A stretch of DNA of 63,997 bases, filler included, from Collodictyon triciliatum (taxonomy: Eukaryota): NCBI GenBank assembly GCA_043381765.1. It is 6 parts of 6 records of this genome, joined end to end, with 100 filler letters (N's around TTAATTAATTAA, not from the genome) between each part and the next. Parts side by side here need not be neighbours in the genome. Positions count along the whole stretch, not along the records: positions 1 to 20,221 come from JBHJMP010001250.1; 5 more parts are not named here. One strand, given 5' to 3'. Each line of letters opens with the position of its first letter. The first letter of the stretch is position 1. Positions 98 to 55,822 of this stretch are shown piece after piece. A program made the translations under genes and the position numbers. The notes below the pieces were generated by a model. The model saw only the letters and a list, made by a program, of their open reading frames with translations, was not told where the DNA came from and searched no databases.

Positions 98-623
98 TAA
101 AAATAAATGACTAAGTAATGAAACACGGTGAATAATAAATATATTAATAATTAAAAAAAATCAAGTCAACATAAAATAATAAATAAGGCGACGAAAGGGC
201 GAATGAAAATAATAACAAATAGAACCATTCATATGCGTATAGATGCACATCCACAACAAACTCATGGAAAGAAGCAAAACCTGGCACGATTGCTGGCTGT
301 ATATGTAAATATTCCACCCCACAAAGCAGATAAGGAAGAAGAGAAAATAAAGTTGCGACCTCCGCGTCCGGATGACAGCCATTCACGGCACACTGCACAG
401 ATCACATAAAGCATAATGATCAATCCTTTTCCCTTCAAAGTCTTTTCTATCCACACTCTCCTTCTCTTCATCTTTGAGCCAAACATCGACAGTCCTTGTC
501 CCAACATAGCTTTCGTGACTGTGCGCCCAAACACTTTCTTGCACACTCCAGCTCGGGGCGATGACAGCAAACAAACGATATTCATTGGCCTTTGTTTTCA
601 GCTTATTTTTTTTTTATCGCATA

Positions 624-745
624 CTAGAAAAGGTATACCAACTTTTCGACTGGTAAACCTGGTTCGCTAGTATCCAAGGTCTCACCATTTTTTTCACATA
701 GGTCGTTTAGTGGCGAACGCTGCCAGGAAAGACCCAACAGCCCGT
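624..745 (-). ncRNA. Putative Fanzor omega-RNA scaffold / element right end
   Basis: Immediately 3' of the Fanzor RuvC-III motif on the same strand. Contains hairpin GCTGTTGGG-TCTTT-CCTGGCAGC (741-719; pairs by G-U only on the minus strand), stem CCTTGG-ATACTAGCGAA-CCAGG whose loop ATACTAG is complementary to the terminal CTAGTAT, and hairpin AGGTTTACCA...TGGTATACCT. The last 69 nt recur at 34392-34460. Confidence 0.6.
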
Positions 746-2639
746 TTTTTAAAGAAAGATGTAGGCATATTTTGAAGGATTAAAAGAACTTGCTTGAGTA
801 TATCTTTTTAGCGCTATTCAAGTCCCTTGTCAAGAGTACAGTTTCTTTGCTTTCTGAGCGATTGTATTCTTTAAATACGAGGCATCTATACACCTTTTTT
901 TATATTTCCTATCAGTGTCATGTATTCCAGTTCTTTTTCGCAGTTGCATCACATCTTGGAGGTTCTAAATTCATTTACAATAAATGTTTCAAAACGTTTG
1001 GATAGTATTTTTCGTAATCCTCTTCCGATTGTTGGCATAAATACTTCATTGGAGATTTTCTACTCCTGCCTCCATACACCAGTACAACATCCTTGCCAAA
1101 TGTCTTTTCGATTCGGTCCATAAACAATTCTTCACTTCTTTTTGTATTAACATACTGTCTCCATCCCATCTTTCGAAAAGTTACTTGTTCATAAAATGTG
1201 GATAATTCTATCTGGCATCTTGATTTCATATGTACATATTTTCGAATTTTTTCATAATCGACCGTGCATGAATTATATTTACTCAGGTCTATGTCTAAAT
1301 CGATTAAAGATACTCTTGATGTCTCAAACAGCTTATTCTCTTAAATAGTCATTTGACCAAAAGAAATAGCTCTTTGTAAACGTGTTGCCATGCTTATCGC
1401 TGAAGAATTGTACTTTTCTTTATTCTTGCACAAGAGTATTTTGCGATTATTTATAGATTTGGTATCATGTCTTCATTAGTGTGCCGTGCAACGTAATTTC
1501 TTACCTTTCTCATCCACCATGTAAACCAAATTAAACTTGCCTGCGTCCACCCCAACTGTTTTTTTTTCTCGCTAATGAAGATATCTGCTCTTCGGAAAGG
1601 TCATCTGTATAAACATATTCTTGGATTTTTTTAATTATATTTGGATTTTGAATTTGAAATATCTTTCTTTCCAAACAATAATGACACCGCCAAGCCGTCT
1701 GATTGTATCATATATTTAAAATTATAGTCTCTTTGATGAAACCCCTTTTCTTCATTTCAAAGAACTCATCCCATAGGGTCTCTTTGCATCCTGATATGTT
1801 CTTCAGTAATTACGTTTTTCAAATAATACTAATAGACCCATCAAACATGCAGTATCTAGATTAATATGACATGGTATATTGTTAGTTCTTGTAGAGATTG
1901 GTTGAAACAGTTTGACTCCAATGTCCTCAAAAATGCGATTCATGTAAATCAGACACGGAATGTACTTATTTGGATTGACTTTGGCATCATATTTGATACC
2001 ATTTACAATATCGCTGGGAATGATACGATTCAAATGTATTTTAGCCCATTCTTTACATTGTTCCGGGTTTTCGAGTTTCACGAAGATGGTTTTTTAAACT
2101 TTCGTAACTCTGCCTTTTTAATAGCTTCCGTCATATTCTTCATCTTTAGGAACTGTTTGATTTATAAAGCGCAGTAGCCTTTTTACAAAATGTTCCTTAA
2201 TGTTATTATGATAAGCTGTTAACACTTGCTTCGCCAAGTACGGTAATACACGAGACAGTCCAACCAACAGAAAGCGTTCTTCTTGGGACAAAAGGAATAG
2301 AAAATCATTGAGATAAAAAGCCATCATGTCATCTCTCAAACCTGGTTTTTTTTTTAAAAAAAAATCATGCGGGTCTATCTTGTGAAACTATTCCGACTGT
2401 CTTTAAAGCGTACAAAAAAACTTTCCATCGATTGTTGAGAGTTATTGTGATTTCAATATGCAACATCTTGCAAACAGATAAGTGTCGGTAACCAAATTAT
2501 GACACAATAAAACCATATCGTTGATTTTGTAATAGTCATCCGCATTCTTTACAATCGACTTTAGAGATGTTTTCACATTTTGATAGCATAGCTTTACAGA
2601 CTTTTGATTATCAGACTCGAGTCATTATCTTTTCCTCAT
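740..2639 (-). pseudogene. Fanzor1 (TnpB/Cas12-like RNA-guided endonuclease), frameshifted and with premature stops
   Basis: Manual translation across frameshifts gives: N-terminal YQNVKTSLKSIVR..KINDMVLLCHNLVTDTYLF; YHNNIKEHFVKRLLRFIN; LFQPISTRTNNIPCHINLDT; YNFKYMIQSDGLAVSLLF; RuvC-I VGVDAGKFNLVYM (D 1545-1547); FRKMGWRQYVNTKRSEELFMDRIEKTFGKDVVLVYG; MPTIGRGLRKILSKRFETFIVNEFRTSK (RuvC-II E 970-972); Zn finger *CNC...VYRCLVFKEY; RuvC-III TRDLNSA (D 822-824). About 630 codons, no introns evident. Confidence 0.9.
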
Positions 2640-3364
2640 CTAAAAGTCTTTGTTTTGCTTTTTCCTACAGGAAACTACCGAGTTTTCAATTTTAGTAAAA
2701 CTTTAGTCAAGCAGTCAATTTAAAAATAAAATAAAAAACAACTGCATAAAATCAGTTTATGTAAAATTAAGCATCTACTGAGACTCTCAAAATATGTGCT
2801 TTGTGACAAACAAACACATCAAGTTTTTTTATAAGTGATTTGAGACAAAACCCTGAGAGCCGATTCGGCGAGTTCGAAAGGACGGCCGTATAGCCATTGC
2901 AACTGAAAGTCAACATATCGGCCCCAAACAACATAATTACCACCGTAAGTGTGGATAGCATGCTTTTTTGGAATGCACGTTTGGTGGCAGGTTTATAGGG
3001 TGGGTTCTGTCCAGGCCAAGACAAGAACTTGTTTGTCATTTTTGAATTCTAATGCAATAATATTACACCATGGAAAATAAAATATAAATTGATTACATGA
3101 ATAGAATGAGATTATTAAGTATTTTTTAACCTTATTATATGCTAATTATATTATTCAGGTTGTTTCTTAGATTCATCAAAGCTCCTGCTTTTGTCGATCC
3201 AGACTTAATTCGGTGATTGTCTGTGCAATAAACTGCTATATCTATGGGTACACATTCGTTGTATAAAAAGTGTTGTGCCTTGGAAGGGATAAAACCACGT
3301 TCGTCACAACCTTTGTAATGAAGTTTATCCATTTACAGGCTGAATGAAACTGAAGAGAATGGAA

Positions 3365-3555
3365 AGAAAAAAGAGAAGAAAAAAGAGAAGAAAAAAGAGA
3401 AGAAAAAAGAGAAGAAAAAAGAGAAGAAAAAAGAGAAGAAAAAAGAGAAGAAAAAAGAGAAGAAAAAAGAAAAAGAAAAAGAAAAAGAAAAAGAAAAAGA
3501 AAAAGAAAAAGAAAAAGAAAAAGAAAAAGAAAAAGAAAAAGAAAAAAGAGAAAAA
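3365..3555 (+). repeat. Purine-rich tandem repeat (AAAAAGAGAAGA)n / (GAAAAA)n
   Basis: Direct reading; source of the spurious poly-K/F ORFs. Confidence 0.9.
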
Positions 3556-4175
3556 GATACGGATGATTGAATCATAGTAACTAACACTGAGCACTATATT
3601 CATACTGACCTTGCTGCCCGTGGGTAGATGGCTAGATCTTGAGGCCTTTTTTTATTCTCCTTCATTATCATTATCATTATCATTATTACTCGTTTCAAAG
3701 AGCTCACTACGTCTTATTCATAGGTTGTTGTACTCACGGCTCGGTGGCAGCCGGCGTCCTGATCGTCGGTGTGTCTCGGGGCATAACCTGTGTGGTAAGG
3801 GATGTGGTAAAGTGACCTTTTCGCTCTCTGCGTTGACTGCGTCAGCCTTCTCGGTTTGCGTGCGATCAGTAGGCATTCATTGGCGCAGGGTTGTGGCACT
3901 GGTCTCCTGGTAGGCGGTCTCGTCCTACTCGGGATCGCTCTTTCCGATCACTTGCTTCCTTGCTTACTTTTTTTTTTCGGCTTTAGAATGTAGTGGGTTG
4001 GGAGAAGAAGGAAAGAATGCCAATGTTATAATATTACTTTTTAGAAAATGTCCTTTCTCTCTCAGTGTTTATTATTTCTCAGTAAAACAGATAGTTTTTT
4101 TTTTTTTTTTTAATGATTGTGTTCTTTTTCATTGTTCCTCTCAAATCTCTCAGTGCGATCACCACATTTATTCAC

Positions 4176-4290
4176 ACAAACAAACAAACAAACAAACAAA
4201 CAAACAAACAAACAAACAAACATACAAACAAACAAACAAACAAACAAACAAACAAACAAACAAACAAACAAACAAACAAACAAACAAACA
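4176..4290 (+). repeat. (AAAC)n microsatellite
   Basis: Direct reading. Confidence 0.95.
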
Positions 4291-4404
4291 GTTCAATTTT
4301 TTTTTTATATTCGCTTTATTGTGGAACGGTATATCGACAAGAGCGACGCCGCTGGATGCGCTGGGGCGATGACGTGTGCCCATCACATGCTGCATTCCTG
4401 GCCC

Positions 4405-33856: not shown

Positions 33857-34143
33857 TGAAACACGCCCGCATTCTTCGCTACTCTGACCGCAAGCGAAGA
33901 GAGATGTGGGAATGTGTCGTGCGATATCTCCCACAGCATATCCAATCCCTGCCACCCACGCAGCCAATCAACCAGTTGGGTCGCCCACCTGACCAACTCG
34001 CCATCACTGACATCTTTCCAGTGCTAGCCTCTCCATAGTTGCGTCTTCTCCTTACTCGCGTTTGCTCTCTCCCATGCGCTCCCATCCCGCCCCTTTGTAT
34101 GGCATAACCTCGCTACACTTTGAATCGAATAAAGGGAAAAAAA
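33857..34143 (+). mobile_element. 5'-truncated non-LTR retrotransposon (ORF2 C-terminus + 3'UTR + poly(A))
   Basis: TSD ATCCTTCACAG (33846-33856 / 34144-34154); ends CACTTTGAATCGAATAAAGGG-A(n). The first 33 nt are identical to the reverse complement of 63053-63085. Confidence 0.85.
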
Positions 34144-34292
34144 ATCCTTCACAGAATCCTCACAAATTTCATCTGTATCATCCCTTCGCGTACTCGACGA
34201 GCCGTCAAGAGAACGCAACAAAATCTATACAACAAATATTGGCAGGCTTTGTTTGTTTCTTTGTTTGTGTGAGACAAAATTTCCAAGATTGA

Positions 34293-34459
34293 TCTATCCT
34301 ATACCACGCGCTGTGAATAAATATGGTGAGACCTTGGAACCCCCCCTCGGTCCTGCACAAAAGTTGAAAGGAAGAATAAAAAAAATAAAATAAAATGGTG
34401 AGACCTTGGATACTGGCGGACCAGGTTTACCAATCTTTCGATTGATATACCCCTTCTAG
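34293..34459 (+). mobile_element. Miniature non-autonomous Helitron-like element carrying the Fanzor right end ('ghost' copy), interrupted by a retro-stub
   Basis: 34392-34460 aligns ungapped with 691-623 (-) at 57/69 nt. Ends in hairpin + CTAG followed by T; candidate 5' end A|TCTATCCTATA at 34293. Confidence 0.65.
34339..34388 (+). mobile_element. Short A-tailed retro-insertion (family B) inside the ghost element
   Basis: TSD AATAAA(T)ATGGTGAGACCTTGGA (34316-34338 / 34389-34410); body TCCTGCACAAAAGTTGAAAGGAAGAATAAAA. Confidence 0.75.
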
Positions 34460-34652
34460 TCTAGAATAAACAGAAAAAAAGAAAAAGGATCAAAACTAAT
34501 TTCCTTGACGCCCAGAAGTTATCGCAAAATCACATACCTTCTTCCCTAAGCCCCACTCAGTTAATACTCAACATCGGATGGTCTCTAATCTATGCCGATC
34601 AGCACAACCTCGAAGCATTCATATGTACGACTAACCTTTGCTCGATTGTATC

Positions 34653-54932: not shown

Positions 54933-55822
54933 GATGATATCGCCGACAGGCTCATATCAAAGGATCAAATAGGATTCATGCGTGGCAGGAACATCGACAC
55001 AAACATATGGCTCGTAAACAAGGAATACATGGAATATCAAGTCTCCAAAGACCCACTTTGAATCGAATAAAGGGAAAAAAAGTCTCCAAAGACCCACGCG
55101 TCATGATATTCTACGACCTTGAGAAAGCATATGACTATGTGAACCATGAAGTCCTAGAAATCATCCTAAAAAAGCGAGGATTCTGCTCAAAGTTCACACT
55201 CATCAAGAAGCTACACGACAACGCCGCAACTAGGGTTCTGACTGCGCACGGCCTTACCGACATAATCCAGAGACAAAGCGGCGTCTACCAAGGATGCCCT
55301 CTGGCGCTGCTTCTCTTTAACTTTGTAGCCGACTGTCTTGCAATCCACTTCAGAAACAACAACAAAATCCGCAACCAGTTCCTCCTGCAATATGCCGATG
55401 ATACAGCCTTCATTCTTCGCTCCCCTGAAGGCGCCATCCTGGCAAATAAGTGCATGCAAGAATACACACTTGCAGTTGGAGGTAAAATCAACTTCAACAA
55501 AACAGATGGTATCCTATTCGGCCTACAGGATGGTGGAATCCTACCAGAAAACATCGATTGGAAATACCCAAACCACGCACTCAGATACCTGGGTGTAATG
55601 TTTGGGAGCGGCTGCGCAGAAAAGCGGGACAAGCTGGTCAACAATATCAAGTCCATAATCGCCTCTTGGAAAAGATTCCATCTTTCAGACATCGGAAAAG
55701 CGAGGCTATGGAACCAACTCATGCTATCGACCCTCATCCACAACATCAAGGGCTCTCACCTACCTCAAAAGCATCTCGACACACTGGAGAGCATATGCCG
55801 CACCTTTGAAATGCGTACCTAA
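54933..55822 (+). mobile_element. Non-LTR retrotransposon reverse transcriptase fragment (L1/Tx1-like), disrupted
   Basis: LISKDQIGFMRGRNIDTNI; DLEKAYDYVNH; GVYQGCPLALLLF; QYADD; GGKINFNKT; RYLGV. Confidence 0.92.
55057..55080 (+). mobile_element. Ultra-short LINE 3' stub (family A) inserted in the RT
   Basis: TTTGAATCGAATAAAGGGAAAAAA between perfect 17-bp AGTCTCCAAAGACCCAC repeats (55040-55056 / 55081-55097). Confidence 0.9.

Follow-up and report, generated by a model that had tools for sequence, protein, structure and literature searches.

The last 120 nucleotides or so of the Fanzor1 element at positions 623–742 (minus strand) of the window – the whole 63,997-nucleotide stretch of Collodictyon triciliatum DNA analysed here – are best read as the right terminus of an element, now dead, that derives from a Helitron, was non-autonomous and has Fanzor1 as its sole gene. 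With moderate confidence, we assign this tail two jobs, as a transposon terminus and as the scaffold of a guide RNA. A sequence-only reading had presented the same region as a candidate omega-RNA with a pseudoknot; a scaffold at the 3′ end of the Fanzor1 gene appears probable from the modelled folds, but the pseudoknot is not supported. As a relic of an omega-RNA the tail is what would be expected and adds little, the copies seen being all dead. Its value lies in the element itself, in which a Fanzor1 cassette is joined to the 5′ half of a Helitron and which has Fanzor-less sisters in the same genome.

The features on which the analysis draws are listed below (window coordinates).

623–742, minus: right end of the element, comprising H1, H2 and a terminal arm; probable scaffold of an omega-RNA, assigned from its folds, its conserved end and the known Fanzor1 layout
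718–742, minus: H1, 10-bp hairpin within the last codons of the Fanzor gene (p > 0.5 in 78/94 copies)
681–717, minus: H2, hairpin of 9+5 bp (p about 1.0 in the majority fold, p > 0.5 in 69/94 copies) whose lopsided internal loop is A-rich; contains the family stop codon at 696–694
658–678, minus: H3, weak 5-bp stem that a pseudoknot would require, competing with the base of H4
667–671, minus: ACUAG, 5′ partner of the terminal CUAGU and part of a nested closing helix in the best fold
634–657, minus: H4, subterminal hairpin separated from CTAG by 6 nt; candidate terminator hairpin of the Helitron (two inverted forms of the loop at 647–644)
624–627, minus: CTAG, the final bases of the element
623, minus: target-derived T just past the end (from a Helitron target cut between A and T; first base of the duplication)
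608–622, minus: flank that would supply a guide of about 15 nt
694–2639, minus: broken Fanzor1 gene with many stops and frameshifts
1702–1694, minus: TDG, family-level Fanzor1 motif
1547–1545, minus: RuvC-I D, family-level (in DAG, not DPG)
972–970, minus: RuvC-II E, family-level, with the zinc finger from 954
824–822, minus: RuvC-III D, family-level
3361–3649, minus: segment common to Fanzor-less Helitrons, directly 3′ of the RepHel 5′ remnant in longer copies
3650–4296, minus: 5′ part of the element, beginning near 4296 with the family motif TTTGCA and continuing with (TTTG)n at 4290–4175 and a conserved non-coding block
34239–34459, plus: second, short copy, internally deleted, in which the 5′ end is joined to the last ~65 nt; without H1 and most of H2

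The element and its copies

The element is about 3.7 kb long and runs from about 4296 to 624, with a TTTGCA-like start followed by the (TTTG)n tract, a non-coding 5′ half and one gene. An 18-nt tail pattern finds at least 247 right ends in the 75-Mb genome (reversed control: 0), and a pattern for the 5′ end has 75 matches genome-wide. Among the 89 distinct right ends fetched, 66 carry CTAG exactly; the base that follows is T in 63 of these 66, and information drops beyond it. The sharp stop of conservation at CTAG described in the sequence-only reading is therefore real and extends one base further, to the T. Sequence conserved up to the element end and a variable flank beyond it are also what is seen at Fanzor1 omega-RNAs.

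At the other end, the element starts with TT in most of the 38 called ends, three having C as the second base. No terminal inverted repeat reaching 8 nt was found; the longest inverted match between the ends is 7 nt, in a comparison limited by the variable 5′ tract. The short copy carries an unrelated 57-bp insertion and lies within a decayed 13-bp duplication (34226–34238 and 34460–34472, 9 of 13 positions agreeing).

All copies examined are broken, with no intact Fanzor gene among the 150 and the 76 candidates scored in the genome, and the system is a fossil here. Gene identity to the column majority is 90.7–94.0% over 66 copies, a divergence that fits one old burst.

The Fanzor1 gene

That the gene upstream of the tail is a Fanzor had been recognised from the start, and PDB profile matches identify it as a Fanzor1. 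A profile of 12 fragments matches only PpFz1 (2e-11), SpuFz1 and GtFz1 among PDB entries, and the closest intact relative, P0001 (648 aa, 64% identical), returns the same three. The commonest states across the copies are TDG (25/54), DEFRT (28/61), and CCNC and RDFN (32/63), which give the TDG motif and the RuvC D–E–D set of a Fanzor1 gene, the E standing just before the zinc finger; the tail lies at the 3′ end of this gene. At RuvC-I, VDAG is found in 38 of 59 copies and VDPG in P0001; as read from the copies, the DAG for DPG at 1547–1539 (minus) is family-wide and so predates the spread. No intron was seen in the gene, and Pfam gave no informative match for the longest Fanzor piece in the window.

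The tail does, as first described, overlap Fanzor's last codons and run on to the sharp element end. With the family stop codon located in H2, the gene extends through H1 and halfway into H2.

Relationship to Helitrons

A RepHel frame of 1194 aa is found on contig C6377 (L194, G000:C6377:627-4208) and matches Helraiser at 3.5e-42. It has no stop in its readable parts but is cut by the contig end, and the element ends are absent; from its sequence, the element that carries it is a candidate autonomous partner of the Fanzor1 element. This contig and the window copy share no DNA because the window copy lacks the piece concerned; the link is present in other copies. In the C53 copy, 745 additional bases separate window-equivalents 3695 and 3649, and part of this DNA is 79% identical to the RepHel start. 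On C53, C337 and C3696, RepHel 5′ DNA (74–80% identical to the C6377 frame) lies upstream of Fanzor on the same strand, and on C2309, C5523, C2700, C6270 and C5490 RepHel lies 1.6–3 kb upstream of Fanzor matches, again on the same strand, as judged from coordinates alone with 40 of 133 candidates scored.

The segment at 3361–3649 ends in a pyrimidine tract at the point where the sister elements have their terminator. Its 70 distinct matches continue into the Fanzor cassette in 47 cases, into a short hairpin with CTAG and T in 3, and into neither in 20, of which 10 lie near a contig end; one more terminator of the hairpin-CTAG-T type can be seen on C1887. Fanzor-less sisters that end in a hairpin, CTAG and T – three on C1887 and one on C7635 – share the 5′ half and the CTAG-T end with the element, and differ from it in the hairpin. 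The C7635 sister (L011, G000:C7635:1160-2042, minus) is inserted in a Fanzor gene of the composite family, and its CTAG is followed by that gene's own T.

On C1887 (L405, G000:C1887:2830-9100, minus), the three Fanzor-less Helitron remnants lie close together, one of them followed by a decayed helicase piece that is 92% identical to C6377.

Canonical Helitrons start with TC and make no target duplications, and by its TT start and its duplications (see below) the element is not a canonical Helitron1. Nor does it have the asymmetric or subterminal inverted repeats of 8–15 bp that mark Helitron2 and Helentrons, given the 7-nt maximum noted above. It does have a 3′ subterminal hairpin followed by a CTRR end inserted before T, sequence in common with a RepHel-coding element, and ends without terminal inverted repeats, all of which are Helitron features. 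The tail is thus probably a Helitron terminus as well as a guide-RNA scaffold. Two other origins were rejected: a non-LTR retrotransposon of reversed orientation, whose tail would be (CAAA)n, is at odds with CTAG as the fixed end and with the Helitron-derived 5′ half, and a Mariner-like cut-and-paste origin, as in viral relatives ending in GGTGTA, is at odds with the different ends and the absent inverted repeats.

Target duplications and the probable flank-derived guide

The right flanks contain ATAA at +4 to +15 in 41 of 66 copies, against 10 of 66 at +21 to +32, and the left flanks end in ATAAA adjoining the element. When left and right flanks are matched and compared with permuted pairs, full-length copies prove to be flanked by decayed target duplications of 9–15 bp. 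The test gives p = 0.018 on the 15 of 34 pairs with a called start and p = 0.0025 on 23 of the 34, the 11 others having been dropped for want of a tract, flank or end; a first test on 10 pairs had given p = 0.04–0.07. Clear duplications agree at 13/14, 12/13, 11/13 and 11/13 positions. Many pairs show no duplication above chance, including that of the window copy, whose best match (10/15, in an A-run) is unconvincing. No duplications were found at apparent 5′ truncations (19 copies, p = 0.34), and most of these breaks are later insertions or repeat tracts.

The scaffold had been proposed to end at about 624. The sharp end stands and a flank-derived guide is probable, but the boundary moves by one base: if ACUAG:CUAGU forms, T623 belongs to the scaffold and the guide begins at 622. 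The duplication would then cover most of the guide region. With 9–15 bp of a guide of about 15 nt duplicated at the filled site, the element must avoid self-cutting; the SpuFz1 guide is reported to be minimally active at 10 nt and to reach a plateau near 13 nt (PMC10432273).

Predicted fold of the tail

All the letters quoted in the sequence-only reading are found on the minus strand. Two of its hairpins, GCUGUUGGG/CCUGGCAGC (H1, 742–718) and the last one (H4, 657–634), each form in the window copy with p 0.99, H1 favouring the Fanzor-sense strand because of its two to three G-U pairs. Its stem CCUUGG/CCAGG (H3), by contrast, is virtually absent from the window-copy fold (p 0.009), and the 14-pair hairpin H2 (717–681) had escaped it. 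In the best fold of the window copy, H1 and H2 are followed by a long terminal arm in which ACUAG (671–667) pairs with CUAGU (627–623) around H4. The fold thus agrees with the proposed pairing of these five bases (p 0.97 in the window copy), but in it they close a nested arm and make no pseudoknot.

Taken alone, the window copy folds no better than chance would allow (z −1.42, matched by 18 of 200 shuffles; z −0.61 on the plus strand), and the same is true of window 605–800 (z −1.23). The column-majority sequence reaches z −5.2 (0/500 shuffles), with H1, H2 and H4 at p near 1; its opposite strand also folds (z −3.3, 2/500). Over 25 copies the mean z is −1.83, against −0.41 to +0.45 in four control segments. 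A stable multi-stem fold on the gene's strand is thus found in the majority sequence, single copies being weaker.

The genomic copies, to which the sequence-only reading had looked for covariation, show none: pair counts in a 92-copy alignment do not exceed those of shuffles, and RNAalifold on the 92 copies returns zero pairs and no consensus structure. This weakens the case for a scaffold without refuting it, since covariation is not to be expected among dead copies of a single parent. The tail is preserved no better than the gene (divergence 0.10 versus 0.065–0.09), the bias of G-U over A-C is not significant by pair (20 versus 11, p = 0.15), the alternative stem GGUCU:AGACC has p 0, and an Rfam scan of 400–1200 gave nothing near gathering score.

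The tail differs from that of the second copy (window 34396–34460) at 12 positions, seven of them in the hairpin tip, just as first counted. Four of the seven amount to a single event, an inversion of the H4 loop (GAAA-like in 68 and TTTC-like in 26 of 94 copies), which shows no linkage (at p < 0.05) with 21 of the 22 other variant sites. Other shared variants among the copies are also mosaic, and together these patterns suggest frequent template switching or recombination among copies.

Intact relatives and transcript data

Intact relatives were found at 160 metagenome and viral loci (L198–L357), with 103 distinct tails, 89 of them aligned. These relatives have a covarying stem-loop, described by model R1, in which 9 of 13 pairs change on both sides (0/500 shuffles). 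It lies inside the last codons, has a GAAAAAGU-like A-rich internal loop and stands at about the same distance from RuvC-III as the tail structure here; a nested terminal stem then extends to the element end. H2 resembles this stem-loop by eye only: a covariance model built from 28 of the relatives' stem-loops left H2 unmatched in the window (with 32 weak matches elsewhere) and in 29 copies. Viral scans with a family fragment, P0001 and the H1 pattern gave no match. In the tail peptide of P0001 two codons differ in the 3′ arm of H1, and all 10 pairs are still allowed as far as can be judged from the peptide alone, which holds for 12 of 361 double replacements.

Contigs from runs X1 and X4, whose type is guessed, cover 603–3300 evenly, come from numerous diverged copies and do not continue past the element end, a pattern that fits DNA as well as RNA. 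The polyA metatranscriptome X2 yielded six contigs, none over 603–1006, and X3 yielded none; being assembled contigs only, these are uninformative.

Proposed mechanism and alternative explanations

The proposed history begins with a Fanzor cassette that would have replaced the terminator of a non-autonomous Helitron just past its pyrimidine tract, where the sequence shared with the sisters stops. The cassette would have brought a new hairpin-CTAG end with it, and the composite would then have spread to hundreds of sites. As DNA, H4, CTAG and the target T seen at the ends of the copies would be a terminus read by a RepHel transposase, presumably supplied in trans. As RNA, a transcript through the end would give a scaffold of about 120 nt, predicted to fold into H1, H2 and an arm closed by ACUAG:CUAGU with the fixed T included, and to be followed from 622 by a flank-derived guide of about 15 nt; here expression, binding to the protein and the start of the guide are modelled on known Fanzor1 systems. 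By the same analogy, the RNP would cut the empty allele and so favour copy-back of the element, a form of homing. A pseudoknot is not needed at any step.

A pseudoknotted scaffold like that of TnpB and Fanzor2 RNAs would require H3 to form and ACUAG, in the loop of H3, to bind the terminal CUAGU, with the protein stabilising the whole; on the present models this is rather unlikely. The geometry is feasible (5 bp plus 5 bp, with H4 in a long loop), and with no penalty applied the helices of the pseudoknot together are 6.8 kcal/mol more stable than the nested fold, which makes this figure the break-even penalty. Folding programs usually set pseudoknot penalties at 7–10 kcal/mol, so that the pseudoknot would win only below a value that is itself near the usual ones. 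Position 659 can pair with U677 of H3 whichever of its two alleles is present (paired in 88/94 copies), the competing pair 659–632 being kept in 75/94, and in GtFz1 a stem loop is described as making tertiary contacts with the last stem (PMC11423790). Against this, H3 reaches only p 0.12 in the majority fold and exceeds 0.5 in just 18 of 94 copies, the same five terminal pairs form nested at 0.81, and neither pseudoknot helix covaries among the copies. A perfect 5-nt complement of the terminus turns up in 10% of shuffled scaffolds (59% with G-U), the intact relatives' tails terminate in nested stems, and the protein, matched in the PDB by Fanzor1 chains only, is not a TnpB or Fanzor2. Fanzor1 RNAs, moreover, are reported without this pseudoknot, their terminal bases being described as an ordinary stem that takes in target-derived bases (PMC10711439, PMC11832414, PMC13565253).

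The tail might instead be a DNA signal and nothing more, with H4-CTAG as the Helitron terminator, H1 and H2 as single-stranded DNA structures or by-products, and no guide RNA ever made by the family. The flipping of the H4 loop between inverted forms, unlinked to most variants, is a DNA-level event, both strands fold, and the family has DAG at the RuvC-I position where intact relatives have DPG; yet the sister Helitrons terminate in a single short hairpin where this element has about 120 structured nucleotides, H1 is retained in an intact relative, and the characterised Fanzors in the papers cited all have RNA at the corresponding place, which leaves this explanation distinctly unlikely. A further reading, which we judge highly improbable, has the guide start only after the duplicated 9–15 nt, and the nuclease recognise ATAA(A), at the outer edge of the duplication, as its target motif. 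Duplications have been reported within Fanzor1 scaffolds (PMC10711439), ATAAA closes the left flanks, and AT-rich motifs are usual for Fanzor1, but the duplication varies in sequence and length and so offers no fixed stem, and both motif and full target would be rebuilt at each filled right junction, inviting self-cutting. A more elaborate proposal, improbable as a whole, is that a Fanzor1 cassette took over a Helitron1-like terminator, so that the 120 nt serve as terminus and scaffold with the target T as last base and possibly with a retained or re-evolved pseudoknot, and that nuclease and Rep together make the 9–15-bp duplications, which would form most of the guide while being just short enough to spare the filled site. 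If true, it would add a second example, independent of the first, of non-canonical duplications in Helitrons that carry Fanzor, an idea put forward for Chlamydomonas (PMC10288648).

Comparison with known systems

The reading of the tail as terminus and scaffold together, which we favour, can be set against several described systems. Fanzor1 in Helitrons is already known: CRe-1, CRe-2 and CRe-3 (CrFNuc) of Chlamydomonas reinhardtii (Bao and Jurka 2013, PMC3627910; Jiang 2023, PMC10530073) are likewise described as non-autonomous Helitrons with Fanzor1. These Helitron2-borne elements are reported to make duplications of variable length, 7–19 bp (PMC3627910), compared with 9–15 bp here, and share with the present element a surplus of 3′ ends and a structured RNA, here predicted, at the 3′ end. 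They are described as containing introns, inverted repeats of asymmetric type and, beyond the duplication, a TTTT motif; the present element, unlike them, has a single 3′ hairpin with CTAG and T, a motif T..ATAA(A) inside the duplication, and RepHel matches to Helraiser. Proto-Helentron-Pi is reported to start with TT, as here, and its ends and those of canonical Helitron1 share the 3′ hairpin, CTAG and insertion before T, but are described without duplications or a Fanzor (PMC4067079, PMC3627910). MCi-2A and MCi-2D of Mucor circinelloides are Fanzor1 elements reported to have no inverted repeats, duplications of 11–12 bp and a fixed AT-rich part; they are given as unclassified, with a partial Crypton transposase, whereas the Helitron origin is traceable here (PMC3627910).

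For the RNA, the scaffold layout is that described for SpuFz1, GtFz1 and PpFz1 (Saito 2023, PMC10432273; Xu 2024, PMC11423790) and for the SfAV Fanzor1 (Yoon 2023, PMC10711439): overlap with the 3′ end of the gene, reach to the element end, stem-loops, a terminal stem and a guide from the flank. Those RNAs were established by sequencing and structure, the present one being likened to them by layout alone. The terminal stem of known Fanzor1 RNAs is described as double-stranded and as including target-derived bases, as proposed here; the SpuFz1 and SfAV elements, unlike this one, are reported with terminal inverted repeats and short duplications. In the TnpB and Fanzor2 RNAs of ISXfa1 and ApmFz2, five terminal bases pair upstream, as here (PMC10711439, PMC11832414), and, as reported for IS607, the scaffold takes in a fixed base from the flank; the differences are that the protein here is a Fanzor1 and that the pairing is nested in the best fold.

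In the literature covered, largely open-access papers, no Fanzor1 Helitron is described that ends in CTAG, makes duplications and has Fanzor-less sisters. The presence of such sisters in the same genome allows one to ask whether duplications come with Fanzor; joint action of an HUH enzyme and Fanzor has been suggested for the Chlamydomonas elements (PMC10288648). An intact natural relative, the 64%-identical P0001, exists.

Other repeats in the window

An interspersed repeat at 33900–34140 (plus) is also found inserted in or beside several Fanzor copies. The 57-bp insertion in the short copy (34338–34394, plus) is a poly(A)-tailed mini-repeat flanked by a 15-bp duplication, with at least 40 copies at 92–100% identity among 334 candidates; several copies start at the same C-run and have their own duplications of 11–16 bp. 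Judged by these copies, it is a young, very short SINE-like retroposon. At 54938–55822 (plus) lies an open frame that resembles, by eye, a fragment of a non-LTR reverse transcriptase.
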